This document shows, one piece after another, positions 12,457 through 45,763 of a stretch of 64,000 bases of DNA; within the stretch, counting starts at the first letter, position 1; each line of letters starts with the position of its first letter. A model generated the notes under the pieces. It worked only from the letters and a program-made list of their open reading frames with translations. It was not told where the DNA came from and did no database searches. Position numbers and translations under genes: made by a program. Origin of the DNA: a bacterium (GTDB lineage Bacteria > Patescibacteriota > Saccharimonadia > Saccharimonadales > UBA4665); contig JAJZMX010000005.1 in assembly GCA_021848145.1 (NCBI GenBank), positions 25,528 through 89,527 on the forward strand, read 5' to 3'.

Positions 12457-12533
12457 TGGCGCCCCGGGATGGATTCGAACCAACGACCTTAGGCTTAGAA
12501 GTCCTCTGCTCTATCCAGCTGAGCTACCGGGGC
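12457..12533 (-). tRNA. tRNA-Arg (anticodon TCT), CCA encoded; weak anticodon stem
   Basis: Acceptor GCCCCGG/CCGGGGC, loop CTTCTAA, T loop TTCGAAT. The anticodon stem GAGGA/GCCTA has only 3 Watson-Crick pairs. Confidence 0.75.
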
Positions 12534-23738: not shown

Positions 23739-25415
23739 ATGGAAAAAAAGAAGCCACAAAGAAACCAGTATTTTAGTGGCAATACCTCTATTGATGGAAT
23801 ATATCGGCCCGTTACTAATAAAAAGCTACAAATAAATACCCAACCCGTAAGACAAGAGCATACTATAAGTCATTTTTCGAGCACTAATAACCAAAGGAGA
23901 GATCTGGATACATCTGTTAGCCAAACTAATGAACATGAGGTTAGACCCTGGCGATCACCAAGAATACAGGAAAATACCTTAATTAGTTCAGCTTTACCTC
24001 CAAGTAATTCATTCTCCAGAAAATCTCAGCAACCAGTCAAACCTAAATCCAAATTTAAAAAAGCAATAAAGCCTACGGCTATTTCCTTGGGAGTCTTGGT
24101 ACTTGTTTTTGGTATCTGGTTTGGCTCAAATATTCTCGGAAGCATTAATAAGATATTTCATGGCAATGTCTTCTCGGATACAAAGGCCCTATTTAGCAAT
24201 ACTCCACTGAAAGAATCAAATGGACGGGTGAATATATTGTTAGCCGGCAATTCTGTTGGAGATCCCGGTCACCAGGGAGCGGCACTCGCAGATTCAATAA
24301 TGGTTATTAGTTATGACCCAGTGTCCAAAAAAGGCTTTATGTTGAGCATTCCGCGCGACCTGAGAGTGTACATACCCAGTATGGGATACCAGAAAATTAA
24401 CGCCGCTATGGATGCTACGAACTTTCATAAAGCCGGTTTTCCTTCCGGTGGCATGGGTCAATTGCAGGAAATTGTTGAAAATGACCTCGGAATACCTATT
24501 GATTACGAGGCATTAATTAACTATGCAGCTTTTAGGGATGCTGTTAATGCAGTAGGTGGAATCACGGTTAATATTAAAAGCCCCGATCCAAGAGGAATTT
24601 ACGATGCCTTTACTCATTTAAGGTTGCCTAACGGAGAGGATAAACTCAATGGACAACAAGCCTTGGACTTGGCTAGGGCAAGAGGAGATAACGTAGCTGG
24701 AGATGTCTCATATGGTCTTCCGAACAGTGATTTTGATAGGACCATGCACCAAAGGCAGATGCTGAAAGCCTTGTTTAAGAAGGCTATGACCCTAGGTGTA
24801 TTGTCTAATCCGATTAAAATAGCAAACCTATTCAGTAGTTTCAGTAACAATATACAAACCAACCTAAGTCTAGGGGATGTACTAAGTTTAAAGGGCTTAG
24901 CTAATGGTTTAAGTCTTTCGGGACTGCAGTCTACTACGTATAGTTTTGGTGGAAGTAATGCTCTTTTAACTGATTATGTATCCTCAAGCGGGCAGGATGA
25001 CCTTGTACCAGCAGCAGGTAAAAATGACTTTAGTCAACTTAAGCAATATTACCAAAAGCTTGCATCCAATAATCCTGTTAAACAAGAAGGTGCTACTGTG
25101 ACAATATTGAACGCCAGCAACGTCTCCGGACTAGCAGCAAGAGAAAAAAGTGTTTTATCTTCCCAGGGATTTGATGTTACATATATAGGCGATGCCATAG
25201 GAAATTATTCATCGTCTATGATCGTAGATAACAGCAATGGGTCTATGCCGGCAGCTAAAACGGAGCTAGAGAAGGATATCCGGGGTCAGGTAGTGCCACC
25301 TACAAACGGTTCTCAAGAGGCTTCAGAGGCCGTTAACTACTCTTCTAACTTTACGATCATTATGGGTCGAGATTGGGATTCGACAAAGCCAACAGGTATC
25401 CCGGTCCAGAATTAG
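23739..25415 (+). CDS. LytR-CpsA-Psr (LCP) family cell-wall polymer transferase with LytR_C domain
   Basis: TM anchor, RVNILLAGNSVGDPGHQGAALADSIMVISYDP...SIPRDL, and C-terminal TILNASNVSGLAA. Confidence 0.85.
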   Translation: MEKKKPQRNQYFSGNTSIDGIYRPVTNKKLQINTQPVRQEHTISHFSSTNNQRRDLDTSVSQTNEHEVRPWRSPRIQENTLISSALPPSNSFSRKSQQPVKPKSKFKKAIKPTAISLGVLVLVFGIWFGSNILGSINKIFHGNVFSDTKALFSNTPLKESNGRVNILLAGNSVGDPGHQGAALADSIMVISYDPVSKKGFMLSIPRDLRVYIPSMGYQKINAAMDATNFHKAGFPSGGMGQLQEIVENDLGIPIDYEALINYAAFRDAVNAVGGITVNIKSPDPRGIYDAFTHLRLPNGEDKLNGQQALDLARARGDNVAGDVSYGLPNSDFDRTMHQRQMLKALFKKAMTLGVLSNPIKIANLFSSFSNNIQTNLSLGDVLSLKGLANGLSLSGLQSTTYSFGGSNALLTDYVSSSGQDDLVPAAGKNDFSQLKQYYQKLASNNPVKQEGATVTILNASNVSGLAAREKSVLSSQGFDVTYIGDAIGNYSSSMIVDNSNGSMPAAKTELEKDIRGQVVPPTNGSQEASEAVNYSSNFTIIMGRDWDSTKPTGIPVQN

Positions 25416-28269: not shown

Positions 28270-28661
28270 ATTGAGTCTTAACTTAGATTATTAGTAGATT
28301 AAGGGTCTGTAATAATACCCACATAGCCATTGTCTTTTTTATATTTATAAATCTCAAAGCAAGCGCATATTAATCATTCTTATTCGCTTATTCTTAAAAA
28401 GAATAGATACATGGATCTAGCAATTTGGGCGTGAGTGTATCCAATGGGGGGTATGAATGTTACAAAACAGGAACAATTGATCAATGAATGGCTTAAAAAA
28501 CCATTCTTACCGTCCCCATCAGGCCCAAGGATATTTAACTCACAATGAATACAGGGCCAAAATACAAAAGGAAGAAGTGGCGCTCATCATATGAATCATG
28601 ACAGCATATTGATGCAAAGATGCCCATATGCTACACTGAGTTTGTTGCAAGAGGAGTATAT

Positions 28662-28880
28662 ATGCGTACAACAATTACACTAAATGACAAAATCTATAAA
28701 GCTTTAAGGATTCGTGCAGCTGAAAGCGGTGAAACAGTTTCTGCCCTAGTAGAAGATGCTGTTATGGAGCAGGTTCTCGAAGACTTAGATGACTTACAAA
28801 CCGTAAAAGAACGTGAGAATGAGCCAGCTATAGATTTCAAAGACTTCGTGAAAGAACTTAAAGCCGATGGTCTCTTATAG
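28662..28880 (+). CDS. Ribbon-helix-helix antitoxin (RelB/ParD-like)
   Basis: MRTTITLNDKIYKALRIRAAESGETVSALVEDAV is an RHH motif. GAGGAG RBS before ATG 28662. It overlaps the toxin start. Confidence 0.7.
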   Translation: MRTTITLNDKIYKALRIRAAESGETVSALVEDAVMEQVLEDLDDLQTVKERENEPAIDFKDFVKELKADGLL

Positions 28881-29136
28881 AGTTAAAATTAAAAGCTCTG
28901 CCCAAAAAGAAATCCACAAACTTCCAAGCAAAGGTCTGCGAAATAAAGTGGTGGATATAATTGATAGCCTAAACGCCAATCCTTTTCCCGAGGGGTCCAA
29001 GAAAATAAAAGGCTCAAATAATATCTATCGCATCAGACAAGGTACATATCGAATCGTATACCAGGTTTATAAAAACGAGCTACTTGTTCTGATTATTAGT
29101 GTTCGACATCGCAGGGACGTTTATAAAGATTTATAA
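28867..29136 (+). CDS. RelE/ParE-family type II toxin
   Basis: [33 protein letters not shown] is the RelE/ParE C-terminal signature. Confidence 0.85.
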
Positions 29137-29141
29137 GATGT

Positions 29142-29218
29142 TGGTACGCCCGAAGGGATTCGAACCCCCGACCTTTGGTACCGGAAACCAACGCTCTATC
29201 CAGCTGAGCTACGGGCGC
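29142..29218 (-). tRNA. tRNA-Arg (anticodon CCG), CCA encoded
   Basis: Acceptor GCGCCCG/CGGGCGT (G1-U72), anticodon arm TTGGT-TTCCGGT-ACCAA, T loop TTCGAAT. Confidence 0.9.
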
Positions 29219-33167: not shown

Positions 33168-33427
33168 GATTCGAATAGATTGAAGCTGTATTTTAGAAGT
33201 TCTTTAGACAAGGGTAGTTATTGTGCCAGGCTTGGCAGAGGTGATACCTCAAATGTCTCGTGCCACCACAGCAATTCACTCTTGAGACGGTTCCAAGACG
33301 AAACTGGAAGGTGTACCATCGAAACGTTTTTAACGATCACCTCTGTTACTGAAATTCTAAATAATTAGCGATCCTGACTGACTGACTGGATTTACTTCTT
33401 TAAATCGGTTCGAATCCTGTTAGGTCA
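33168..33427 (+). repeat. Repeat family copy 1: inverted short tail (33168-33212), 106-nt core (33213-33318) and long tail (33319-33427) ending in GGTTCGAATCCTGTTAGG
   Basis: Manual alignment to copies at 34224, 42556(-), 36953(-) and 37755(-). Confidence 0.8.
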
Positions 33428-33477
33428 ATCCCATAACTCATCCATGCTTACTAGTTATCTAATGTTATGATTACTAC

Positions 33478-34200
33478 ATGGATCTAAAAATTGTTGATGA
33501 TTTAAAAGTTCTGTTTGAAAAAGATTCGAAGGTCCATGCCATGTGGATTGCTGGATCTGTTGCAGAAGGCAACAATGATGAGCTATCCGACGTTGATTTA
33601 TGGCTGGATATAGACGACAACCAAGACCAGCAAGTACTAGATAAAGTTGAGGGGTTTTTAGCCACTAAAGGAACCATTGACGTCAATTTTGGAGAAGGTT
33701 TAACGCCGCCTTTTACTCATAAGGTTTATCATCTAGCCCAAATGGATCCACTTCATTTTATTGAAATTAATCTTCATTCTCACTCACATAAATTTGGCTT
33801 ATTCGATAGTCTGCGCAAAATAAAAGTATTGTTTGATAAAGACGGTTCAACCGATTTTGAATCTTTTGATGAAGCCAACTATAGCAAAATGCTGAATGAG
33901 CGTAAGCAATTCCTATTAGAAAAGATTGAGTTTGGTGAATTATCGGTCAGAAAAGAAATACAACGCAAACATTTCTTGGAAGCACTGCATAATTACCAGT
34001 TTTGGTTAGTCGAGCCTATAATTGAAGTCATTCGAATTAAACACACGCCATTAAAAATAACTTACGGCTTAAAACATGGCAGCAGGGATCTTCCTAATGA
34101 AGCGGTGGCTGCAATAGAGTCGTTATATATCATCAAATCGATCAGTGACTTGAATAATAAGATCGGTGAGGTGAATGAGCTCGTTAAGCAATATAGGTAG
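33478..34200 (+). CDS. Nucleotidyltransferase (aminoglycoside/lincosamide ANT-like, Pol-beta superfamily)
   Basis: GSVAEGNNDELSDVDLWLD matches the GS-x(n)-DxD NTase motif. A roughly 130-aa helical C-terminal domain resembles KNTase-type enzymes. Confidence 0.65.
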   Translation: MDLKIVDDLKVLFEKDSKVHAMWIAGSVAEGNNDELSDVDLWLDIDDNQDQQVLDKVEGFLATKGTIDVNFGEGLTPPFTHKVYHLAQMDPLHFIEINLHSHSHKFGLFDSLRKIKVLFDKDGSTDFESFDEANYSKMLNERKQFLLEKIEFGELSVRKEIQRKHFLEALHNYQFWLVEPIIEVIRIKHTPLKITYGLKHGSRDLPNEAVAAIESLYIIKSISDLNNKIGEVNELVKQYR

Positions 34201-34208
34201 GTTACTCA

Positions 34209-34329
34209 GTTCTAATCCAGCACGGTAGTTACTGTGCTAGACTTGGCAGAGGTGATACCTCAAATGTTTCGTGCCAGCGCATCAGTTCACTATTGAGGCG
34301 GTTCCAAGCGGAGACAGGAAGGGGTACCA
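34209..34329 (+). repeat. Repeat family copy 2 (core 34224-34329), beginning 9 nt after the NTase stop
   Basis: 8 mismatches in 106 nt versus copy 3 by manual alignment. Confidence 0.85.
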
Positions 34330-34378
34330 AGCATAAGCTTTATAGTATTGCATAAGATCTTCTTGTTATTATTAACGA

Positions 34379-34651
34379 GTGCAGAATTATTTATCACTAG
34401 CTTTGCTAGCAACAGGGTTAGCGTCAGTTGTAGCCGCTTTACCACAACTAATACGCGTCCTAAAGCTAAAAACTTCTCGAGAATTAAGTATTTTTAGTTG
34501 GACTGTTTGGCTACTTTACCAGTGCGTATCAGTAGCATATTCCTTACACATACACGCTAAAGCATACGCTTTGATTAATGTGCTTTGGGTTTGTTTTTAT
34601 GCAAGCATGGTCGTTCTAATAATTAGGTATCGACGTTCCCAAAGACAATAG
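34379..34651 (+). CDS. SemiSWEET / PQ-loop 3-TM transporter
   Basis: 90 aa, 3 TM, PQ motif (VAALPQLIRVLK). GTG start. Confidence 0.6.
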   Translation: MQNYLSLALLATGLASVVAALPQLIRVLKLKTSRELSIFSWTVWLLYQCVSVAYSLHIHAKAYALINVLWVCFYASMVVLIIRYRRSQRQ

Positions 34652-35145
34652 TATTAAGGTTCTGACTTCTCGGACTAGGGCGTACCGCCACGATTTCACT
34701 TCCATTAACCCTACTTGTCACCAAGCAGAATTTAAATTTGCAAAAAGTTATAATTGTTATATGTCTAACAAACAATCTGTGCATATGCCAGTTTTTATAC
34801 TTTTTGCGATAGTTATATTAATCGGTTTAACGGTACTACTTTAGAAATATTTCGAATACTTATTATTTTGTCAGTCTGAAAACTCCGGGGCGTATAGTAT
34901 ATAAAACTTCCTCGCAGTGTAATCTGGGCGTAATTCATGTTCAGACCATAACAAGAGACGATGTTTATTTTTACTATGATAAATTCAGGTTAACGGCCGA
35001 TAACAAAACCGGTCGGCTAACCGACTTTACGACTGACGAAAAAATGCAAGTAACGACTATCGACAAGACCAAGAATATATCAAAAATCAGAGCATTAAAC
35101 TGACATAAAGGATCAGATTTTCACTGGTTTGCACAAAGAAAGTAG

Positions 35146-35175
35146 TTGACGTATTGGTATAACTTTCGTTATACT
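35146..35175 (+). promoter_or_regulatory. Candidate promoter TTGACG-18 nt-TATACT placed 7 nt before the antitoxin ATG (leaderless mRNA candidate)
   Basis: Hexamers at 35146-35151 and 35170-35175. There is no Shine-Dalgarno sequence between the -10 and ATG 35183. Confidence 0.4.
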
Positions 35176-35182
35176 TATTTAC

Positions 35183-35419
35183 ATGAAAACAGCAGTTTCT
35201 ATACCGGATAACGTATACGCTTCAGCTGAAAAACTTGCTAGACGCTTAGGCAAATCACGTAGTCAGCTTTATGCCCAAGCTTTAAGTAATTATTTATCTA
35301 AGCATCAAAAAGAAGGCATAACAACTAAATTGAACGAGATTTATCTTAATAGTGACTCAAGGGTTGATAAAGTACTTGCAAAACTGCAAGCCCAGTCCCT
35401 ATCAAAGGAAGATTGGTGA
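35183..35419 (+). CDS. RHH (CopG-type) antitoxin paired with MazF
   Basis: MKTAVSIPDNVYASAEKLARRLGKSRSQLYAQAL is an RHH motif. It overlaps the toxin start. Confidence 0.7.
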   Translation: MKTAVSIPDNVYASAEKLARRLGKSRSQLYAQALSNYLSKHQKEGITTKLNEIYLNSDSRVDKVLAKLQAQSLSKEDW

Positions 35420-35754
35420 AACGTGGTCAAATCTGGTGGGCAGAATTACCAGAACCAAGTGCTTCAGAGCCAGGGTTTAAACGACCAGTAATTATTGTCC
35501 AGGCGGATGAGTTCAATAATAGTCGCATTAGTACAGTAATAGTAGTGGCAATAACCTCTAATTTGAGGCTCGCTGATGCACCTGGTAATTTACACCTTCC
35601 AAAATCGAAAACTGGGTTAACAAAGGATTCAGTCGCTAATGTGTCTCAAGTACTTACCCTCGACAAGACTTTCTTAACGGAACAAATCGGACGGCTTGAT
35701 AGAGTAACTGTTCAGCAGCTAGATGAAGGCTTGCAACTAGTTCTTTCTCTATAG
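35413..35754 (+). CDS. mazF: MazF/PemK-family endoribonuclease toxin
   Basis: RGQIWWAEL...KRPVIIVQADEFN...VIVVAITSN is the PemK signature. Confidence 0.85.
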   Translation: MVKRGQIWWAELPEPSASEPGFKRPVIIVQADEFNNSRISTVIVVAITSNLRLADAPGNLHLPKSKTGLTKDSVANVSQVLTLDKTFLTEQIGRLDRVTVQQLDEGLQLVLSL

Positions 35755-35823
35755 AACCATGTGACCCAGTTCACGGAAAACCTATTGACAAACTTTATAA
35801 AGTTTTAATATATTTATAAAGTT

Positions 35824-36738
35824 ATGAATTACTCTAAACAACTAAGGGCTATATTAGATGCAAGTGGCTGGACGCAGGAAGAGCTTGCCAAACAATTAGG
35901 TGTATCGTTCGTAACTATAAACTCATGGATTAACGCTCGGGCTAAGCCTCGTAAGAGGGCGCTTGAATCTATACGTATTCTGTACTTTGATGTGCTGGGT
36001 GACAACAGTTTAGATGTAGGCTATCTTGAAGAGCTGAAAGAGAAAATTAAACTTCTTAGCATTAAGCTTTCTCAGATCACTGAAAACAAGGAAGTTTTCG
36101 ATAAACTCGTACTCCATCTGACCTATCATACAAATGTTATAGAGGGCAGTACCATGACGCTTGATGACACAAGAGAAGTTCTTTTCGAAAACAGAGTCCT
36201 AACTAACAGAACGCAAATTGAGCAGGCCGAGGCCAGGAACCACAAAGCCGCACTAGTTTGGCTACTGGGTGCGTTACAAAGCAAGAGTTTTGTAATTGAT
36301 GATAGTTTAATAAAAGGGCTACACCTCAGGCTCATGAATGGCATTATAGAAAATGCAGGACTGTACAGAAACCATTCAGTTCGCATAATGGGTGCGCATG
36401 TTACTGTTGCCGATCATATAAAAGTGCCTGAATTAGTGCATGAGCTGCTTACGAAAATTAATGCTAAGGCTAAAGAAGAAGTTACAGAAAAATTATCTGA
36501 AACTCATGCTATTTTTGAGAAGATACATCCATTTAGTGATGGTAACGGAAGAGTGGGCCGATTACTAATGCTTGCCCAAGCCTTACAAATAGGTATTGTG
36601 CCACCTTTGGTGCTGAAAGAGAGAAGGCAGGCATACTATAAGTATTTAGGGCTTGCACAGACTCAAGATAACGTGATGCCTTTACAGCTTTTTATAGCTG
36701 AATCTATAGTTGCAGCCAATGATCTACTATTTAAGTAG
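35824..36738 (+). CDS. HTH(XRE)-Fic fusion protein (AMPylase family)
   Basis: N-terminal HTH (WTQEELAKQLGVSFVTINSWINARAKP) and the Fic motif HPFSDGNGRVGR. Confidence 0.85.
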   Translation: MNYSKQLRAILDASGWTQEELAKQLGVSFVTINSWINARAKPRKRALESIRILYFDVLGDNSLDVGYLEELKEKIKLLSIKLSQITENKEVFDKLVLHLTYHTNVIEGSTMTLDDTREVLFENRVLTNRTQIEQAEARNHKAALVWLLGALQSKSFVIDDSLIKGLHLRLMNGIIENAGLYRNHSVRIMGAHVTVADHIKVPELVHELLTKINAKAKEEVTEKLSETHAIFEKIHPFSDGNGRVGRLLMLAQALQIGIVPPLVLKERRQAYYKYLGLAQTQDNVMPLQLFIAESIVAANDLLFK

Positions 36739-36747
36739 CAAAAGGCG

Positions 36748-36953
36748 CTAACAGGATTCGAACCAGTTTTAAGAAGTAAATACTCTCAGCTAGGCAGGGT
36801 TGTTAATTATTTAGAACTTCAGAAACAGAGGCGATCAATGAAAAAGTTTTGATGGTACCCCCTACCTGATGTGTTCAGAAAGAAGTATTACCAAGTAATA
36901 CTTGGATTTGCTAAGGATATTGAGTTTGCAAAGTCTTATCTAGGCACTACGCC
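36748..36953 (-). repeat. Repeat family member R_a: divergent-centre core (36853-36953) plus long tail (36748-36852)
   Basis: The ends match the 106-nt core family. The tail aligns with the copy-1 tail and contains CAGGATTCGAACC and TGGTACCCCCT, both identical to tRNA-Arg(TCG) segments. Confidence 0.7.
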
Positions 36954-36961
36954 AGTTTTAT

Positions 36962-37243
36962 CTACTTGCTAGCTGTTGCAAGTTCTTCGTCAACTTTTTC
37001 GCTTAGATATACTTTCATTAACGACTGATATGGTACACCTTTCTCATTGGCTAAAGCTTTAATATGTGCAAGGAGTGGGCCAGGAATCCGCATGGATATA
37101 GATTCAGAGGTCAATTTCAAGTTGGGAAAGACTACTTCCTCAGCTTTAGACCAATCAATATATTCCCCAGAGTCGTGGGTATCCCAAAATTCAACTTCTT
37201 CCTCCTCATTTCTAAAATCAGGTATTTTTTTAAGTTTTTTCAT
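36962..37243 (-). CDS. brnA: BrnA-type antitoxin
   Basis: EEVEFWDTHDSGEYIDW and a C-terminal RHH-like segment (ISMRIPGPLLAHIKALANEKGVPYQSLMKVYL). Confidence 0.75.
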   Translation of the reverse strand: MKKLKKIPDFRNEEEEVEFWDTHDSGEYIDWSKAEEVVFPNLKLTSESISMRIPGPLLAHIKALANEKGVPYQSLMKVYLSEKVDEELATASK

Positions 37244-37526
37244 AATTGCTCCTCTCTATTCTCTTCATATCTCTTACAGATATAACCCTTATTTTTTCGT
37301 CTCTTATCGTAAACGCTACGAATAATAATCTATTGCTCTTTGTTTTACCTAGGCCAGTGAATCTTTGCTCAGACGATGAAGAATGTTTGACGTCTTGTTT
37401 AATATAGAAGGGTTTTCGTACAAATATTTCTTCAGCTTCTTGAGTGGTCACATTGTGTTTAATAAGGTTCTTGTGAATATTACCCGTATCCCATTGAAAA
37501 GCAATTGGTTTAGGCAATACCCGCAT
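37230..37526 (-). CDS. brnT: BrnT-type (DUF497) toxin
   Basis: FQWDTGNIHKNLIKHNVTTQEAEEIF and RVISVRDM signatures. The toxin precedes the antitoxin, as in brnTA. Confidence 0.8.
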   Translation of the reverse strand: MRVLPKPIAFQWDTGNIHKNLIKHNVTTQEAEEIFVRKPFYIKQDVKHSSSSEQRFTGLGKTKSNRLLFVAFTIRDEKIRVISVRDMKRIERSNYEKT

Positions 37527-37586
37527 CTTTATAGTATATTCTTAGTATATACATATGTCAATAGTCTGTTTTAAATAATTGATAAA

Positions 37587-37755
37587 CCCCTAGAGGATTC
37601 GAACAGATTGAAGCTGTAATTCGGGAAGACTTTCAACTGAGGTAGTTGTTCAAATGGTACCCCCTACCTGGTATGTTCAGAAAGAATTATTACCAAGTGA
37701 TGATTGAAATAGCCAAAGAAATTGTGTTGATAGACAGTTTATTGTTCCAGCTTTA
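37587..37755 (-). repeat. Repeat family member R_b: short tail (37587-37654) plus divergent-centre core (about 37655-37755)
   Basis: The short tail aligns with 42383-42450. TGGTACCCCCT lies at 37655-37665. The CCAAG-loop hairpin is shared with R_a. Confidence 0.65.
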
Positions 37756-37845
37756 AGTACTATATTATAAAAACATCTAATTGCCATACCATACTTTCTC
37801 AACTTTTTATTAGGTGATGCCAATCTGTTGTATTATTAGTGTATT

Positions 37846-38391
37846 ATGTCATTAATATTCATTACTGGTATATCTGGTTCGGGAAAATCAGCAGTCTGGC
37901 AAGAACTAAAGAGCAGAGGCTATGAAGCATATGATGTTGATGAAGATGGCTTAGCAAAATGGCATAATAATGACACTGGCTATGTTCACCCTAAATCATC
38001 AGTAAAAGCTCATCAGCGTACCCCAGAGTTTTTAGCAAGTCATTCATGGAAAGTTCCTCGTAATGAAGTAGAGGAATTAGCTAAGCATGCTGTAGATAAG
38101 AATGTCTATTTGTGTGGTGTAGTTGCTAATGAAAACGAGCTTTGGGATTTATTCGGTAAAGTAATTGCTCTAACAGTTGATGAAGATACACTTAGACATC
38201 GCATTAAATCTCGTACTAATAATGACTTTGGTAAATCTGAACACGAGTTCGAGCAAATTATTGGCAGGCAAGAAGACGCAAAAGACTCATATAAAAAGTT
38301 TGGGCATATAACAATAGATGCAACTAGACCATTAGACGAGGTGGTAGATGATGTCGTCGCAATAGCTAGTTCAGGAATTAAAAATGGTTAG
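37846..38391 (+). CDS. P-loop kinase (AAA_18/33, shikimate/adenylate-kinase-like)
   Basis: Walker A GISGSGKS. 181 aa. Confidence 0.6.
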   Translation: MSLIFITGISGSGKSAVWQELKSRGYEAYDVDEDGLAKWHNNDTGYVHPKSSVKAHQRTPEFLASHSWKVPRNEVEELAKHAVDKNVYLCGVVANENELWDLFGKVIALTVDEDTLRHRIKSRTNNDFGKSEHEFEQIIGRQEDAKDSYKKFGHITIDATRPLDEVVDDVVAIASSGIKNG

Positions 38392-39379
38392 TAAATATTT
38401 TGAGCGCCTAGGCTACAAGGATGATAGCGAACTTTTAATCGCAGAAATTAGTGATGGGTATGATTTAGGGGCTGTTCAGGAAGCGTCAGTTTTAACAGTT
38501 GGTTTTGAAGACTGTAATGTCAGAGTTAGAACTGACACTGGACAATTTGTTATTAAAGCATTTGGTAAGTTTCGAGATGACGCAGATATTGATAGATATG
38601 TCGATGTTATGCAAGCAGTTACTGAAGGCGGTGTTCATCACCCTGCCTTACAGGATACTAGAGATGGAGGTGTGCTTTTCAAACACTCAAGTGGTGTTTC
38701 GGCAGTAGCGATGGATTTCATTGAAGGTCATACCTACTTTGATACTAAGACTGTACCGACTGATGAGGAATTAGAACTAGTAGCCGCTGAAGCTGTTAAG
38801 ATTCATGCTCTAGATATAGACCCGCCATACGTCTTTGATTCATGGGCTATCCCACATATCCATAAAATGCATGAAGCTGCCCTACCATTTCTAGATGAAG
38901 GTGGTAGAAAAATAGCAGACGCTGCACTTGCACGTTATGACGCTATTGACCTTAGTAAACTAGAAATGCGGTTTATCCATGGCGATATTATTTCAACTAA
39001 TACTTTACTGGGTAGTGATGGTAAAGTATGGATTCTAGATTTCGCTGTATCTAATGTATATCCAAAGATACAGGAGCTGGCAGTAATTGCTAGTAGCCTA
39101 CTTGCTGGAAGTGAATTTGTGCCACTTGGTCATAGAGTAGAGCAAGTTAAGAAAGCATATCTTGTTGTTGGCGGTAAGCTATCAGATTATGAGCAACACG
39201 CCTTAATGGACTATGCTATTGCAGCAGCAGCTATGGAGTTTATGGGTGGCCATAAAGCTAAGTTTATTGACAAAGAAGAGGTTGAAGAATGTGATTATTG
39301 GATTGATGTGGGCAGGAAAGCACTCCAAGAATCATTAGGGCTATTTGACCATAAACAAGGTGAAGGCAAGAAAAAATGA
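38384..39379 (+). CDS. Aminoglycoside phosphotransferase (APH)/homoserine-kinase-II family kinase
   Basis: Catalytic loop FIHGDIISTNTLL and Mg-binding WILDFA. Confidence 0.75.
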   Translation: MVSKYFERLGYKDDSELLIAEISDGYDLGAVQEASVLTVGFEDCNVRVRTDTGQFVIKAFGKFRDDADIDRYVDVMQAVTEGGVHHPALQDTRDGGVLFKHSSGVSAVAMDFIEGHTYFDTKTVPTDEELELVAAEAVKIHALDIDPPYVFDSWAIPHIHKMHEAALPFLDEGGRKIADAALARYDAIDLSKLEMRFIHGDIISTNTLLGSDGKVWILDFAVSNVYPKIQELAVIASSLLAGSEFVPLGHRVEQVKKAYLVVGGKLSDYEQHALMDYAIAAAAMEFMGGHKAKFIDKEEVEECDYWIDVGRKALQESLGLFDHKQGEGKKK

Positions 39380-40005
39380 TAATCTTCATCTTCGGCGACA
39401 GCATTACAGAAGGTCTTTGGGATAGTAAAGGTGGTTGGGCTGATAGAATTAAGGCATTCGTACAAAGCGAAGAGGTAAAATCTGGAATTAAGAATTATCA
39501 TGAGGTGTATAACTTAGGTGTAGATGGCAATACTACTAAGCAAATAATTGACAGATTTGAATCTGAAACAAAAGCTAGACTATGGCCTGATGAAGAATAT
39601 GCATTTATTTTCGCTACAGGCACTAATGATACTCTGCATAGAAACAATCAAGAGTTTGAATCAACCCCAGAACGTTATAAATCTGAGCTAAATCAATTAA
39701 TAGGACTTGCTAGAATGTACTCATCAAAGGTCATGTTCGTAGACATGCTGCCAGTTGACGAAAACCTAACTAACCCAATTAAATCTTCATCTAGTGGTAA
39801 ATGTTATACCAATGAAAGAATCAGAAGCTTTAATGAGGTTCTTCATGAGGTATGCGATAACCAATCATTAACTTACATAAAAGTCAGCGAAAAGTATCTT
39901 GAGCAAGACTACAAAACGTTACTCGCAGATGGCATACACCCAAATGACCAGGGTCATGAAGTAATTTTTGATTTAGTTGTTGAATATATAAGGGGGCTGC
40001 TATGA
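39376..40005 (+). CDS. SGNH/GDSL hydrolase
   Basis: Block I FGDSITEG, block III GTND, block V DGIHPN. Confidence 0.8.
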   Translation: MIIFIFGDSITEGLWDSKGGWADRIKAFVQSEEVKSGIKNYHEVYNLGVDGNTTKQIIDRFESETKARLWPDEEYAFIFATGTNDTLHRNNQEFESTPERYKSELNQLIGLARMYSSKVMFVDMLPVDENLTNPIKSSSSGKCYTNERIRSFNEVLHEVCDNQSLTYIKVSEKYLEQDYKTLLADGIHPNDQGHEVIFDLVVEYIRGLL

Positions 40006-40901
40006 GCAAAACTATAGAAAAGAAAATCCTTCCTGAATACTTTGAAAAGGTAGCTAGTGGCGAAAAGACCTATGAGCTTAGACTTGCGGACTGGGATTGT
40101 CGGCCTGGCGATATACTAGTATTAAATGAAATTGACCCTAAAACGAGAGAGCTTACTGGTCGTTCATTAAAGCGTAAAGTTGGTTATGTTGGCAAAACTA
40201 AAGATATAGATTTCTTTTCAACAAAAGAGATAGATGAATATGGCTATCAGATAATATCGCTACTTCACGATTTGCCAGAAGTTCGTATTAAGGACGCATG
40301 GTTAGTTAGAGAAAATGTTTCAACCCATTTGCATGAGTTGTGGGGTAAAGGCAAAGAACTTGCAGACGATGAATGGATGGAGAAAAGAGTCAAAGACTAC
40401 CAGAAAGCCTGGAGGCCTTATCAACAGAAAATATTGCAAGGCATGACAGAAACAATAGGCTTATATTTTAGGCAGGACATAATTGATGTTTACATTGCTC
40501 CCTGGTTTAACGCATTTAGTGACCCTATGATAATTGGCGTAATGCGCGAACCAGATGAGTTTATAGACACTCTAACGCATGAGTTAATACATAGACTTCT
40601 TACTGATAACACAACAATCCCACACGAAACCAAGTTACTAGGTGAATGGCAAAAATTATTTGGTAAAAATCATTCATTTTCAACGCTGGTACATATTCCT
40701 GTTCATGCTATACATAAGTCAATTTATTTAGATGTGCTTGATGCTCCTAATAGACTAAAAAGAGATATTAATGGAAATAAAAAGTTCAATGCTACTGATT
40801 ATGTTAAAGCCTGGGATTATGTTGAAAAACACGACTATAAAAAGATTATTGATAAGCTAAAGGATTCATACCTAACCTTGCATCGGAGTGTCAATGAGTA
40901 A
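40002..40901 (+). CDS. ASCH/DUF3850-like N-terminal domain fused to an HExxH putative metallohydrolase domain
   Basis: EKTYELRLADWDCRPGDILVLNE is DUF3850-like. HELIHRL is an HExxH motif. Confidence 0.45.
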   Translation: MSKTIEKKILPEYFEKVASGEKTYELRLADWDCRPGDILVLNEIDPKTRELTGRSLKRKVGYVGKTKDIDFFSTKEIDEYGYQIISLLHDLPEVRIKDAWLVRENVSTHLHELWGKGKELADDEWMEKRVKDYQKAWRPYQQKILQGMTETIGLYFRQDIIDVYIAPWFNAFSDPMIIGVMREPDEFIDTLTHELIHRLLTDNTTIPHETKLLGEWQKLFGKNHSFSTLVHIPVHAIHKSIYLDVLDAPNRLKRDINGNKKFNATDYVKAWDYVEKHDYKKIIDKLKDSYLTLHRSVNE

Positions 40902-41412
40902 CTTCGTATTAGCAATAACAGGCCCTGCAGGCTCTGGTAAAAGTACAGTTGCTAGTAGGCTAGCAAAGCGGATAGAAAAATGCGTGAATATAGACGCTGA
41001 TTATGTAAAGCATATGGTGGCCAATCCTTTTATTTATGATGATTCTCCTGAAGGCATTGTTCAGTGGGAGCTACTTGGTGACAATATAGGACTGATTGCA
41101 AAAAACTTTAACAGAAGTAGCTATAACGTAATAATTAATGGCTATATCAACGAACCCGCCTGGCGCAAAATCTTAGAGCATATTGAGCTAACTCACAAAG
41201 TATTGCTATTACCTGAACTAGAGGAAGTCATAAAACGTGATTCACTAAGACAAGAAAGTGATGCTATGGGCGAGGACGCTATAAGGGTACACCATGACTA
41301 TTTCTCAAATAGTCATTTTTTTGATGATTTCACTAACATTGATTCAACTGCACATACAGACCAGGAAACAGTTGATGATATCAAAAAGAACGTATTAAAG
41401 AATGGTCTATAA
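40888..41412 (+). CDS. P-loop kinase (AAA_33 / chloramphenicol-phosphotransferase-like)
   Basis: Walker A GPAGSGKST followed by the NIDADY segment. Confidence 0.55.
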   Translation: MSMSNFVLAITGPAGSGKSTVASRLAKRIEKCVNIDADYVKHMVANPFIYDDSPEGIVQWELLGDNIGLIAKNFNRSSYNVIINGYINEPAWRKILEHIELTHKVLLLPELEEVIKRDSLRQESDAMGEDAIRVHHDYFSNSHFFDDFTNIDSTAHTDQETVDDIKKNVLKNGL

Positions 41413-41414
41413 AT

Positions 41415-41807
41415 ATGGACTACGAAGGAGTAATAATTGAAGAGAGCCTAAAAGATAAAGGTGTACTAAAACTGGTTGAGGTAGTTACCACTAAAGTTGA
41501 ACCAGTAACCAAAGAACATAAAACTCCCTGGCTAAAACAATGGACATTGCACACTGTTAAGATATCTGAAAGTAATATAGATAAAGTCGCTGAGGTTATA
41601 AGTAAGTCACTTGAACCTAACTACTGGTATGCTGACTTTAAGAATAGCAAGCATCACTACATAATTTTTCCAAACAAAGTATTCAAAGTAGACAGAAGTA
41701 AGCCAGAGCAATATAAACAAGTTAGTAGTTATGGACTAGGTTTAGGTATCCCAGATTACCAACTAGACTTTTCGCCAGTAATAAGACAATGGGAAAGGCC
41801 AGAATAA
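41415..41807 (+). CDS. Hypothetical protein
   Basis: ORF tightly packed within the operon. No motif recognised. Confidence 0.4.
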   Translation: MDYEGVIIEESLKDKGVLKLVEVVTTKVEPVTKEHKTPWLKQWTLHTVKISESNIDKVAEVISKSLEPNYWYADFKNSKHHYIIFPNKVFKVDRSKPEQYKQVSSYGLGLGIPDYQLDFSPVIRQWERPE

Positions 41808-41813
41808 TAGTAA

Positions 41814-42389
41814 ATGGCATTTGACGAAAATAGCTTAAAGCAAGTTATTGATAAAATCAAATCAATAAATAAGCCAATAAAACCCGTAATCATTGGTATT
41901 GAAGGTTTTGGTGGGTCTGGTAAGTCTACTCTAGCTAAGATGCTGAAAGAGAAACTTAATAATTGTGAAGTTATTAGTATTGACGCATTTATTATTAAAG
42001 AAAATGCCCGACAAGCTAAACCACAGGAGGAAACCTTTGACATTACAAGACTAGAGGAACAGGTATTAAAGCAAGCTAGCGGCGATAAGCAAATCAGCTA
42101 TCAAGTTCTTGATTGGGCAAGTAATACTTTAGGTAAAAATATAGATTTGCCGAAAATGGATTACCTAATCATAGAAGGGATAACTTCATTTCACCCAAAC
42201 ATAGAACATTACTATGACTTTAAGATTTGGGTTGATGTACCCATTGAGGTAGCAAAAAGGCGAGGACAATTAAGAGATAAAGGCAACGAAAACGAGGGAA
42301 TGTGGGACAAGTGGGCAGCTTCTGATTTAGCTTATAAAGAAAAATTTCACCCCGATAAAAAAGCTGATTTTAATATCGATAACCCCTAG
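41814..42389 (+). CDS. Uridine-kinase/phosphoribulokinase-family P-loop kinase
   Basis: GIEGFGGSGKSTLAK and LIIEGI motifs. Confidence 0.6.
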   Translation: MAFDENSLKQVIDKIKSINKPIKPVIIGIEGFGGSGKSTLAKMLKEKLNNCEVISIDAFIIKENARQAKPQEETFDITRLEEQVLKQASGDKQISYQVLDWASNTLGKNIDLPKMDYLIIEGITSFHPNIEHYYDFKIWVDVPIEVAKRRGQLRDKGNENEGMWDKWAASDLAYKEKFHPDKKADFNIDNP

Positions 42390-42571
42390 AGGATTCGAAC
42401 AGATTGGAACTGTAGTTTTGGAGTACTTTCGACAGGGGTGATTGTGCCAATGGTACACCTTCCTGTCACCGCTTGGAACCGCCTCAAGAGCGAACTGCTG
42501 CGGTGGCACGAAACATTTGAAGTATCACCTCTGCCAAGTCTAGCACAATAACTACCGTGCTGTATTAGAAC
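42383..42571 (-). repeat. Repeat family copy 3: core (42451-42556), short tail (42383-42450) and 15-nt leader; starts 1-2 nt after the antitoxin stop
   Basis: Manual alignment. The core is enclosed by the inverted repeat ATTGTGC...GCACAAT. Confidence 0.85.
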
Positions 42572-42572
42572 C

Positions 42573-42836
42573 CTATCTGGCAGCGGCCTTATGTAAAACC
42601 GATGAAGCGTAAGTCTGATAGGGTATGCCTTCAGCTATAGCTTTAGCCTTAAGTCTATATAAATCCTGTTCAGATAACCGAATACTAATGTTTCTTGTTT
42701 TATTAAGGGTGGCTTTAGCGGCAGCCTTGGCTTTTGCGTGCTCTTCTTTGGGATTGTTGACCTGAACAAACTCTCCTCGATTGTAGGCATCGAGTAGTTC
42801 CCGTTCATCTGGATCGAGGTCGTAATCTATCATCAT
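42573..42836 (-). CDS. BrnA/CopG-like antitoxin
   Basis: C-terminal RHH-like ISIRLSEQDLYRLKAKAIAEGIPYQTYASSVLH. 4-nt overlap with the upstream toxin. Confidence 0.65.
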   Translation of the reverse strand: MMIDYDLDPDERELLDAYNRGEFVQVNNPKEEHAKAKAAAKATLNKTRNISIRLSEQDLYRLKAKAIAEGIPYQTYASSVLHKAAAR

Positions 42837-43114
42837 AGCTTTTCTCCTTTCAAATACTTTTTGGTGGCTTTTCTACTTGGGATTATAGTTTTTAGGAAGA
42901 TCTTTTCCTCGTCTTCTACATAAGGAACGAGGTATGAATAATCATCTATCCTTACAATATATACTTTTTGATGAGCGTATTTCTTTATATTGGGGTGGTT
43001 GATTGTGTCAAGTAGCCTATCATCATTGATGGCTGCCACAACGTCCTCAAATGAAACCTTCCGTTCACTTTTTAAAATCAAGTTTTTAGACTCATTCCAA
43101 TGAAAAGGTTTCAC
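42833..43114 (-). CDS. BrnT-like (DUF497) toxin
   Basis: FHWNESKNLILKSERKVSFEDVVAAI and FLKTIIPSRKATKKY resemble the BrnT N- and C-terminal signatures. Confidence 0.6.
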   Translation of the reverse strand: MKPFHWNESKNLILKSERKVSFEDVVAAINDDRLLDTINHPNIKKYAHQKVYIVRIDDYSYLVPYVEDEEKIFLKTIIPSRKATKKYLKGEKL

Positions 43115-43143: not shown

Positions 43144-43220
43144 TGTAAATAATTGGTACCCCCTGCAGGATTCGAACCTACGACCTTCTGTTCCGAAGAC
43201 AGACGCTCTAATCCGCTGAG
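43144..43220 (-). tRNA. tRNA-Arg (anticodon TCG), CCA encoded
   Basis: Acceptor GCCCCCT/AGGGGGT, anticodon arm TCTGT-CTTCGGA-ACAGA, T arm GTAGG-TTCGAAT-CCTGC. Confidence 0.9.
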
Positions 43221-43277
43221 CTAAGGGGGCAAGACTAACGTATACTATCTTATCAGCGGAGGAGATTTTAACAAGCT

Positions 43278-44602: not shown

Positions 44603-45763
44603 ATGCATAATATGAGGCACACTAAATCTAGTTCCCCTGGTAATGCTTCGAGCAATAATTTTGCCAGCCCAACGTTTAGAACATCGTATGAACGGGTTGG
44701 TAATGCTGAAGCTGTAATTGACGAAAAGAGAAATAAACCAAGGATCAGGCGGTGGATTAAACGCACGGTATTAATTTCGGTTGCAATTGTAGTTATAGTT
44801 GGCGGAGTTTTTGGATATGAACTTTATTCTGAAGCATCAAAACTAACGAACCAGCCTAATCCATTTTCTTTATTTACTTCCTTGTTACCACAATCACCTA
44901 AGGAGACTAATGGCAGGGTTAATATTCTTCTTGCGGGCTATTCTGTTGGTGATCCTCATCATCAAGGTGCCCAGCTTACTGATTCAATTATGATAATTTC
45001 GATAAACCCTAAGACTAAGTCTGGTGTTCTATTAAGTGTTCCCAGAGATCTTTGGATTCATATTCCTGGTAATGGCCAAAGTAAAATTAACGCAGCCTAT
45101 GAAGATGGCCAGGCAGAAAACTTTAATGAACCCGGCTACTTTCTTGGAGGTATGGGCTTGCTTGAAAAAGTGGTTAGCCAACGGTTCGGCGTAAAGTTCG
45201 ACTACTACGCATTAATTAATTATGCAGCACTTCGTGACGCTGTAAATGCAGTAGGAGGGATAACAATTAATATTAACAGTCCGGATCCTCGTGGGATCTA
45301 TGATCCATATACTCACTTGAAGTTGCCCAATGGCAAGGTGCATTTAAATGGACAGCAAGCATTAGACTTAGCACGAACCAGAGGTGATGGTCCTGGAAGT
45401 TATGGAATCCCAAATAACGATTTTACACGAACGCAGTACCAACAAAAGATGATAGTGGCGATAAAGGACAAAGCTAGTTCATTGTCTTCCTTCGTGAATC
45501 CAATAACAGTTCTTAAGCTAGTAAATGCAGTTGGTAACAATGTTAAAACTGACCTAAAAATTGGCCAGATGGAGTCTTTATATAGTGACGTTAAAGGCAT
45601 ATCCAACGGTAGTATCAAAGAAGTAACACTGAATAACTATAATGGTCATAATCTCCTGGCCAACCACTATATTGATGGTCAAGATGCCTTAATACCCGCA
45701 GATGGTTTAGGCAATTACGGAGCGATTAAAACGGCAGTAAATAATCTGTTGTACGGCAATTAA
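44603..45763 (+). CDS. LCP (LytR-CpsA-Psr) family protein, second paralog
   Basis: RVNILLAGYSVGDPHHQGAQLTDSIMIISINP...SVPRDL, closely parallel to the protein at 23739. Confidence 0.85.
   Translation: MHNMRHTKSSSPGNASSNNFASPTFRTSYERVGNAEAVIDEKRNKPRIRRWIKRTVLISVAIVVIVGGVFGYELYSEASKLTNQPNPFSLFTSLLPQSPKETNGRVNILLAGYSVGDPHHQGAQLTDSIMIISINPKTKSGVLLSVPRDLWIHIPGNGQSKINAAYEDGQAENFNEPGYFLGGMGLLEKVVSQRFGVKFDYYALINYAALRDAVNAVGGITININSPDPRGIYDPYTHLKLPNGKVHLNGQQALDLARTRGDGPGSYGIPNNDFTRTQYQQKMIVAIKDKASSLSSFVNPITVLKLVNAVGNNVKTDLKIGQMESLYSDVKGISNGSIKEVTLNNYNGHNLLANHYIDGQDALIPADGLGNYGAIKTAVNNLLYGN

Follow-up and report, generated by a model that had tools for sequence, protein, structure and literature searches.

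What is the nature of the repeats that bracket individual genes in a 64-kb stretch of Saccharimonadales DNA (contig JAJZMX010000005.1; the window in what follows)? An initial annotation, based on the sequence of the window alone, had described them as one five-member family of structured repeats of 100-106 nt, and had considered for them the roles of a recombination site in a cassette system, of a structured RNA, or of a miniature inverted-repeat transposable element (MITE). Here the three most similar copies are called c1, c2 and c3 (A element) and the other two c4 and c5 (A' element); loci outside the window carry L-numbers. With a probability that we put at roughly two in three, our analyses point to an arrangement in which small gene cassettes are stacked head-to-tail behind tRNA-Arg genes in the Saccharimonadales (Saccharibacteria, Candidate Phyla Radiation or CPR), and are bounded by right arms of three kinds, A, A' and a 30-nt class of sites. 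Each cassette, with a size of 0.35-4.8 kb, a cargo of mostly toxin-antitoxin pairs besides other accessory genes, and a promoter of its own, would begin at the base after the sequence GTACCA, which belongs either to the 3' end of a tRNA-Arg or to the end of the preceding cassette, and would finish with the GTACCA of its own right arm; many cassettes would also have a left arm (B or C). Since the units begin after GTACCA and end with GTACCA, each insertion would recreate the target.

The three 106-nt cores of the A element (33213-33318 and 34224-34329 on the plus strand, 42451-42556 on the minus strand) were recovered as first described, both by alignment and by BLAST, with E-values inside the window of 1e-30 to 1e-37; identity is 85.8% between c1 and c2, 87.7% between c1 and c3 (13 mismatches), and 92.5% between c2 and c3 (8 mismatches). 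Copies outside the window were collected with an exact-pattern scan of one genome per species, which yielded 15 loci in about 12 metagenome-assembled genomes (several labelled Saccharimonadales or Saccharibacteria, and one Candidatus Dormiibacterota), and then with a peptide-pattern scan of the JGI metagenomes, which yielded 19 further loci; together with the extra copies that blastn found inside these loci, the total is 38 unique A copies. Mean column identity in the family is about 90%. Conservation falls to noise directly outside GGTTCT...GTACCA, stopping at the 3' border exactly after CCA, and the flanks are unrelated between copies. Judged by conservation, the true unit measures 122 nt, not 106, with its 5' end placed 15-16 nt further upstream; its sequence is GGTTCTAATCC...GGTGTACCA, also written GGTTCTAATCCAGCACGGTAG...GGAAGGTGTACCA, and c1 matches the family consensus with 92% identity over 106 nt. 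The remark that members start 1-9 nt after a stop codon on their own strand holds also with the true 5' end, which is often found about 1-10 nt after such a codon. The best-conserved part of the family is its centre, not its ends, the opposite of the conserved-ends/variable-centre pattern that had been likened to attC sites.

Two of the possible origins of A find no support. The ends GGTTCT and GTACCA are not inverted repeats of each other, and apart from the GTACCA that belongs to the units no target-site duplication is present in the flanks; with no terminal inverted repeats, A is not supported as a MITE. An origin from phages or plasmids was rejected because two A patterns gave 0 matches in the IMG/VR viral contigs, and blastn gave no match in the PLSDB plasmids or the INPHARED phages. 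When the ends of tRNA-Arg genes were used as patterns against IMG/VR, the one for tRNA-Arg(TCG) gave 0 matches, and the one for tRNA-Arg(GCG) retrieved only phage-borne tRNA-Arg(TCT)-type genes unrelated to the A family. Two IMG/VR loci (L045, 4040-4127, and L055, 3900-3984) hold tRNA-Arg-like sequences with normal 5' and 3' ends, a long unusual middle and no ARAGORN call, which may represent an interrupted phage tRNA gene. In L009 (1809-1856) the first 48 nt of A (98% identity) are joined to the 3' end of an opposite-strand PIN-domain (VapC-like) gene, which means that the part of A proximal to the stop codon also exists detached from the remainder.

The relationship of A to tRNA-Arg genes could be assessed for 21 of the 38 copies, the other 17 having too little upstream sequence to judge. 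A tRNA-Arg gene in the same orientation lies 343-2508 nt upstream of 14 of these 21 copies, with anticodon GCG, CCG, TCG or TCT, and no other type of tRNA occupies this position in any of the 21; the usual order is tRNA-Arg, one small cassette, A. The tRNA-Arg genes with anticodons GCG, CCG and TCG, both in the window and in L010, L012 and L019, encode the CCA, have a G1-U72 pair, and end in GTACCA; the tRNA-Arg(TCT) of the window (12457-12533) has a different end, ...GGGGCGCCA. The end of A, GGTGTACCA, is also the 3' end of tRNA-Arg(GCG) in L010, L012 and L019 (9-10 nt shared), and the end common to c4 and c5, AGGGGGTACCA, is identical to the last 11 nt of the tRNA-Arg(TCG) of the window. Descent of the whole A element from a tRNA-Arg was rejected: global alignments give z-scores of 2.3 (GCG) and 0.9 (TCG), and unrelated tRNAs score alike. 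As these values are unremarkable, likeness to tRNA can be claimed for the terminal ~10 nt only.

Around the A element we recognize four other modules. The copies c4 and c5, 101 nt long, are 82% identical to each other over 74 nt. As their alignment with c1-c3 is confined to ~16 nt at the 3' end (...CAGGWAGG(G)GGTACCA), they constitute a second family, A', and not divergent members of the first as originally thought. A conserved stretch of A' recurs at L011 3245-3304 and L006 6387-6449 without the GTACCA end. Modules B and C are absent from the initial annotation. Module B follows c1 and c4 in the window and is found directly behind tRNA-Arg(GCG) in L012. Module C follows c3 and c5, with a partial copy at 33168-33222, and in both complete copies the initial ~31 nt repeat, in inverted orientation, the initial ~31 nt of A. 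Finally, short GGTTCT...GTACCA separators of 30-33 nt, which resemble the segment of a tRNA from T-loop to CCA plus 5 extra nt, occur in the window and in L014, L015, L020, L022, L025 and L036. Because the recurring ParDE, MazEF and BrnTA units keep these borders, a cassette would have B or C as its left arm, and A, A' or a 30-nt site as its right arm. The same roles of left and right arm can be read in L012, where tRNA-Arg(GCG) is followed by B, a Fic gene and A, in a segment 94% identical over 1018 nt to window positions 35753-36770.

The evidence that carries the argument for cassettes comes from units that recur in different surroundings. A ParDE-like cassette, which together with its A arm measures 709 nt (89% identity), is found behind the CCA of tRNA-Arg(GCG) in L019 and behind the CCA of an A copy in L011, the homology beginning ~2 nt past CCA. 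The ParDE cassette of the window lies directly behind the CCA of tRNA-Arg(CCG), and its homologue in L020 behind a site that ends in ...GCGTGTACCA; an A arm closes the cassette in L020 and L037. In L014 and L036 a MazEF cassette starts 6-7 nt past a 30-nt GGTTCT...GTACCA site; its right end is an A arm in L009, L014 and L033-L036, and L037 contains a part of this cassette. The most telling case for discrete cassettes is the unit of 802 nt composed of C, BrnT-BrnA and A': a protein identical to BrnA1 is present in at least 6 contexts, and the homology always extends from 37663/37664 to 36853 of the window, with 96-99% identity. This unit is whole in L060, L063, L065 and L069, and is cut by the end of the contig in L066 and L067. 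It starts exactly after the CCA of an intact tRNA-Arg(GCG) (L065), of an A copy (L060, L063, L069), or of c5 (window), and its right neighbour is a B arm or a TrmB cassette; its right arm ends in ...GGTAGGGGGTACCA, its left arm starts with TTTGAACAACTACC, and the arrays that hold it are anchored at tRNA-Arg genes of type GCG, CCG or TCG.

Comparison of strains gives a consistent picture, with differences in content at the repeat boundaries. Locus L042 is 100% identical to the window over 7.3 kb from the FolC side up to 43151, 3 nt past the end of the tRNA; beyond this point it has a B-type arm directly after the tRNA, then an unrelated gene, and no array. Other strains have a different left part of the large cassette, or an IS3-like insertion; in one of them (L040, 703-1179, plus strand) an IS3-like rve fragment lies beside a PRK gene. 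Contigs assembled from short reads often end within or just past the repeats, for example in L003-L005, ~38 nt after the stop codon of the nucleotidyltransferase. Thus the units have sharp borders with precise GTACCA ends, one and the same cassette stands behind three tRNA-Arg isoacceptor genes and behind A and A' arms, and strains diverge at the borders, so that of the readings first entertained the boundary of a cassette system is the one that the data favour. Units evidently move between tRNA-Arg genes and between array positions.

We infer that the agent of this movement is a trans-acting, site-specific recombinase that would insert and excise the cassettes by exchanging strands at GTACCA or directly beside it. 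The hexamer CTTATG/CATAAG stands no more than 16 nt past CCA at 9 of the 38 A junctions (background 0.5%; p ~5e-13), including that of c2 in the window (34330-34345) and those of L011, L022, L029, L031, L033, L036 and L038, and it also occurs right after tRNA-Arg(TCG) in L025. The search for the enzyme consisted of Pfam scans of the window ORFs (open reading frames) of at least 150 aa not covered by the Pfam annotation of the matching contigs, and of the ORFs beside the arrays in the outside loci. An IS110-family transposase (DEDD_Tnp_IS110 + Transposase_20) was found in L035 (7588-8685, plus strand), directly upstream of MazEF, where a GTACCA separator stands in other genomes; a link of the arrays to IS110 (bridge-RNA) elements was rejected, as this is a lone transposase with no recurring association.

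Several findings weigh against the cassette reading as set out above. No integrase, resolvase or transposase is encoded in the 64-kb window or beside the arrays in the examined loci, and the enzymatic step is therefore unproven. For 7 of the 21 assessable A copies, 4 kb or more of upstream sequence contains no tRNA-Arg, and the oppositely oriented c1 and c2 have no anchoring tRNA within ~4 kb. Between tRNA ends and arm ends, exact identity may extend over no more than 6 nt (GTACCA), far below typical attachment (att) cores. The MazEF and ParDE cassettes of the window have no A arm, and no circular form or pair of filled and empty sites with both flanks identical was recovered. These points must be set against another explanation, by which the arrays are the passive debris of decayed integrase-bearing elements (prophages, or elements like ICEs (integrative and conjugative elements) or tycheposons) that had entered at tRNA-Arg genes and of which addictive toxin-antitoxin genes and scars of partial tRNAs remain, with cassettes shuffled by homologous recombination between the repeats A, B and C after DNA uptake, and no dedicated recombinase at work. 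The failure to find a recombinase near any array would then be expected; in length and similarity (85-97%) the arms would suffice for RecA-dependent exchange, scars of rearrangement are present (the inverted, truncated A beside c3 and c5, and a head-to-head junction at 35753-35758), and accretion of this kind is described by the tycheposon model of island growth (10.1101/2020.12.28.424599). We nevertheless regard it as unlikely, because homology between units starts 0-3 nt from CCA even where the left neighbour is a tRNA gene with only 6-10 nt in common with the arms, which is too little for homologous recombination, because one and the same unit keeps its exact borders in at least 4 contexts, and because no fragments of integrases are seen in the arrays.

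A folded RNA was another of the readings first entertained. This view has a very small probability in our estimate. It would make of the repeats a structured non-coding RNA on the strand that ends in CCA, either within the 3' untranslated region of the cassette genes or as a small RNA by itself, in agreement with the frequent start of the unit 1-10 nt past a stop codon on the same strand, and with a few double changes (6 pairs) held by the hairpin GCACGGT-AGTT-ACTGTGC and the helix CTTGG/CCAAG. Folds of single sequences, on either strand, do not differ from dinucleotide shuffles (z from 0.06 to -0.96), and RNAalifold gives consensus energies of -7 kcal/mol with 37 A sequences and -16 kcal/mol with 19, in both cases with 0 compensatory pairs. 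A five-helix structure was built by hand so as to take in the helices of the initial annotation, and was compared with 500 shuffles: 91.3% of its cells can pair (90.7% in the shuffles), its covariation score of 0.134 (0.127 in the shuffles) is matched by 56 of the 500 and is not significant, and its double changes, 6 pairs with each found in one sequence, are equalled by 8 of the 500. In Rfam 15 only tRNAs pass the gathering scores, and the A copies have no match at E<=1. A role of an A hairpin as intrinsic terminator was likewise rejected, with no terminator-like site on any copy. Thus, the A repeats are not supported as structured RNA. The substitutions that had been read as helix-preserving are correctly described, and are no evidence of pairing, since they are synonymous on the opposite strand, where ACCTC>ACTTC and GTCTC>GTTTC exchange GAG for GAA (Glu24 and Glu21, respectively) and GAGAC>GAGGC exchanges CGT for CGC (Arg11) in an ORF of 33 codons.

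This ORF, which the statement that no conserved ORF spans the repeats had missed, is present in every A copy as NTG GTA CAC CTT CCA ... TAA, and reads (M/L/V)VHLPVSAWNRLKSELLRWHETFEVSPLPSLAQ followed by the stop codon, with MVHLPVSAWNRLKSELLRWHETFEVSPLPSLAQ as a stretch of its peptide. Coding statistics were first derived from 19 copies picked by DNA pattern, and thus unbiased as to coding. In these, minor alleles number 54, 21 and 100 at codon positions 1, 2 and 3, respectively. The ratio of non-synonymous to synonymous polymorphism (pN/pS) is 0.23 in the frame of the mini-ORF, 0.31 in the frame of the complementary strand that shares its third positions (and has stops), and 0.75-2.06 in the other four frames. 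Distinct variants are 35 synonymous and 35 non-synonymous against an expectation of 24% synonymous (p=1.6e-6), and no significant excess of synonymous variants is seen in the other two phases of the same strand. The frame is open in 33 of 38 copies, whose first codons are ATG (15), TTG (12), GTG (8), CTG (2) and TTA (1), so that 35 of 38 begin with ATG, TTG or GTG; C is depleted as first base (2 seen, ~7 expected). In a copy that was found by blastn and lies outside all search patterns (L020b), codons read by hand indicate that the protein is kept despite many synonymous changes. The mini-ORF of A is therefore under purifying selection. The ~22 nt past its stop codon, non-coding, are as strongly conserved as the coding part, and the A unit is thus under both coding and non-coding constraint. 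Two other frames were set aside: a forward-strand mini-ORF (ATGTCTCGTGCC...) behind an internal GAGGTGAT, whose variable sites fall on second codon positions in a by-hand reading of the alignment, and a second opposite-strand frame (+1 relative to TGG; WYTFQFPLGTASRVNCCGGTRHLKYHLCQV followed by a stop), which is open in the consensus and unsupported by the pattern of substitutions.

Searches of 5.8 billion clusters at 90% identity (word-indexed) and of 1.84 billion representatives at 50% identity (HMMER) returned as relatives of the peptide only ~10 tiny ORFs of 48-105 aa, called by accident, in which the position of the motif varies; Pfam has no match even at E<=10, and AlphaFold predicts a single helix over residues 6-25 (pLDDT, the predicted local distance difference test score, 76). 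We rejected the idea that the peptide is half of a ribbon-helix-helix antitoxin (hhalign probability of 0.1% against MazE, and the blank Pfam result), and also the idea that A is the C-terminal fragment of a larger gene or of a gene split by integration, as neither protein search returned a parent protein and the left ends of the cassettes carry no common N-terminal coding piece.

One could then suppose that A is simply a small protein gene, toxin-, antitoxin- or regulator-like, that exists in many copies in accessory islands, and that its coincidence with cassette borders is secondary. The strong purifying selection with intact frames and the predicted single-helix structure would both be explained in this way. 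We assign to it only a small probability, because the ~22 nt past the stop are conserved like the coding part, the other border of the unit is, to the base, a tRNA-like CCA end, equivalent positions are held by 30-nt and A' arms that have no such ORF, and most copies have no translation signals.

Read on the opposite strand, the CA of CCA gives the TG of the start codon of the mini-ORF, whose first base is contributed by the adjoining sequence. In every B and C arm the initial base is T, which provides the mini-ORF with a true ATG. At a distance of 7-16 nt upstream of the start, these arms also bear GAGGTGAT or GGGGTGAT, which can pair with the anti-Shine-Dalgarno sequence, and copies of the mini-ORF that do not adjoin a B or C arm have no Shine-Dalgarno-like GAGGTGAT. 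With ATG and Shine-Dalgarno sequence both supplied by the B or C arm, the mini-ORF is best equipped for translation at an A-B or A-C junction, and its expression would be favoured where a right arm meets a left arm, as in a circularised cassette. The opposite strand of A' reads ...FRK(K/N)YYQV(I/M)..., out of frame with the junction ATG; the copies are too few for a coding test. Taken together, these features suggest a more elaborate proposal, an integron-like cassette system of the Saccharimonadales with docking at tRNA-Arg, right arms of 30-122 nt that mimic tRNA ends, left arms B and C, a recombinase in trans, and a micro-protein of 33 residues that would report or control the excised or joined state, its gene gaining ATG and ribosome-binding site only when right and left arms are joined. 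We consider this proposal tentative, and in its complete form rather doubtful. Most mini-ORF copies have neither a Shine-Dalgarno sequence nor a recognisable promoter, the frame is broken in five, and the first codon is CTG in two and TTA in one; these observations weigh against the cassette reading as a whole.

How does the proposed cassette system compare with known ones? The closest analogues would seem to be integrons and tRNA-anchored islands such as tycheposons. As in integron arrays, small cassettes rich in toxin-antitoxin genes are arranged head-to-tail, with cargo and a downstream site that recreates the insertion point; one cassette is found at different array positions and in different genomes, and site classes vary in length while sharing short ends (here GGTTCT...GTACCA). 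Unlike integrons, the arrays are anchored at the 3' end of tRNA-Arg and yielded no IntI; their sites are non-palindromic and strongly conserved in sequence, their cassettes have promoters of their own and often a left arm, and the main class of sites holds a protein-coding ORF. That the repeats are true attC sites, either in an integron or in a CALIN (an integrase-less attC cluster), is in our judgement extremely improbable. The arrays of genes each with a downstream repeat, rich in toxin-antitoxin pairs, would fit, and a length of 122 nt with conservation within the clade recalls the VCR-type attC sites of Vibrio; on the other side, neither the window nor the surroundings of the examined arrays yielded an IntI-type tyrosine recombinase, the ends are GGTTCT/GTACCA and not RYYYAAC/GTTRRRY, the anchor is a tRNA gene and not attI, cassettes have their own promoters, and single-stranded DNA of either strand forms no imperfect end-to-end palindrome, folding only into local hairpins with z from -0.3 to -1.75. 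Over all folds, of RNA or of DNA, z thus ranges from ~0 to -1.8.

Tycheposons of Prochlorococcus are tRNA-anchored islands built by serial site-specific integration (10.1101/2020.12.28.424599). With this type of accretion, or with that of integrase-less elements of the CIME type (cis-mobilizable elements), the arrays share a proximal intact tRNA, partial-tRNA-like repeats between segments, growth next to the tRNA, strain differences confined to the island, and segments of cargo only, without integrase. The units described here are far smaller (down to 0.35 kb), with exact and recurring borders and a tRNA identity of 6-11 nt; their separators are conserved families (A, A', 30-nt, B, C) and not mere pieces of tRNA, and no integrase-bearing master element is seen. 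Of the features that define tRNA islands, a proximal tRNA in the same orientation and strain differences in content at the border were thus found, and an element-encoded integrase was not.

Archaeal integration of the SSV type (SSV, Sulfolobus spindle-shaped virus) offers a third comparison. There attP lies inside a gene, which in SSV1 is the integrase gene that becomes split. In both cases the target is tRNA-Arg, the att core overlaps with a coding sequence, and the integrity of the gene depends on a joined junction; in contrast to SSV1, the gene here is an orphan ORF of 33 codons, to which the partner arm contributes no more than the first base and the ribosome-binding site. In the literature library searched, no paper describes the present system or links Saccharibacteria with integrons or attC sites, or with tRNA-anchored toxin-antitoxin islands.

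The layout of the window can be read in these terms (Table 1). Its cargo includes BrnT/BrnA twice, MazEF, Fic, a nucleotidyltransferase, kinases and similar genes, and the bracketing first noticed is borne out, with c1 and c2 flanking the nucleotidyltransferase gene, and c5 and c4 flanking BrnT-BrnA. On the minus strand tRNA-Arg(TCG) is followed in order by BrnTA2 with c3, by C, seven genes and c5, by C, BrnTA1 and c4, and by B, Fic and 6 nt of a lost A arm. The plus-strand order is c1, then B, the nucleotidyltransferase and c2, then a PQ-loop gene and its 30-nt site, then ~450 nt of non-coding sequence, and MazEF, whose arm is lost; no anchoring tRNA was found for this series. Positions 35753-35758 are the first 6 nt (GGTTCT) of the A arm of the inverted Fic cassette, fused to the stop region of MazF: AACC, directly behind the MazF stop codon, completes with the bases before it the reverse complement of GGTTCT. 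It seems that two arrays join here head-on, each having lost its A arm. This junction and the inverted piece of A beside c3 and c5 may be scars of rearrangement between inverted copies.

Table 1. Features of the window, in window coordinates; arm roles are predicted from recurring borders, and those marked putative by analogy with other cassettes.
Feature	Position	Strand	Remarks
ParD-ParE cassette directly following tRNA-Arg(CCG) (29142-29218), second anchor	28603-29218	-	
A element c1, predicted cassette right arm	33197-33318	+	ends ...GGTGTACCA; first 16 nt degenerate
Mini-ORF of c1, 33 codons plus stop	33218-33319	-	MVHLPVSSWNRLKSELLWWHETFEVSPLPSLAQ, then stop; A of ATG is first base of adjoining B arm
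B module, predicted left arm of nucleotidyltransferase cassette	33319-33423	+	T directly after CCA; opposite-strand GAGGTGAT; ends in T-loop-like GGTTCGAATCCTGTTAGG
Nucleotidyltransferase (Polbeta family), cargo	33478-34200	+	
A element c2, predicted right arm of nucleotidyltransferase cassette	34208-34329	+	starts 8 nt after stop codon
Mini-ORF of c2	34229-34330	-	TTG start; LVPLPVSAWNRLNSELMRWHETFEVSPLPSLAQ, then stop
30-nt-class separator	34658-34690	+	GGTTCTGACTTCTCGGACTAGGGCGTACCGCCA; behind PQ-loop gene; homologous to site preceding MazEF cassette in L014
MazE-MazF, cassette cargo	35183-35754	+	A arm absent here
Truncated Fic cassette	35753-36852	-	B arm 36748-36852; Fic 35824-36738 (+ strand); Fic promoter region; 6 nt of A arm
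A' element c4, predicted right arm of BrnTA1 cassette	36853-36953	-	ends ...AGGGGGTACCA
Complete BrnTA1 cassette, 802 nt	36853-37654	-	C arm 37585-37654; BrnT1 37230-37526; BrnA1 36962-37243; A' arm
A' element c5, predicted right arm of 4.8-kb kinase/APH/GDSL cassette	37655-37755	-	
Large cassette (putative borders)	37655-42450	-	C arm 42381-42450; seven + strand cargo genes 37846-42389; A' c5 arm
Mini-ORF of c3	42450-42551	+	GGGGTGAT 7 nt upstream of ATG, inside C arm
A element c3, predicted right arm of BrnTA2 cassette	42451-42572	-	starts 1 nt after BrnA2 stop codon
BrnT2-BrnA2 toxin-antitoxin pair, cargo	42573-43114	-	own promoter-like site 43149-43121 directly after tRNA
tRNA-Arg(TCG), anchor of minus-strand array	43154-43230	-	c3, c5, c4 lie behind

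Two other repeats were observed in the window. Paralogues of LytR_cpsA_psr at 24501-24689 and 45200-45388 form a direct repeat of 189 nt with 74% identity, unrelated to the A element, and short GGC/GGT-rich tandem-like repeats lie at 62791-62933 within an ORF of 569 aa that encodes a glycine-rich protein.

The Saccharibacteria and other CPR bacteria have tiny genomes with few recognised mobile elements, and their exchange of accessory and defence genes is poorly understood. A system of cassettes with exact borders, anchored at tRNA-Arg genes and common to many species, would represent a compact route of gene flux in this phylum, and a new example of integron-like logic built from different parts. 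The case also calls for some caution in the reading of repeats, as an unannotated antisense ORF can, through its synonymous transitions, give the impression that substitutions preserve a structure. That highly conserved ORF of 33 codons, overlooked by gene callers, is a concrete candidate for a new micro-protein.

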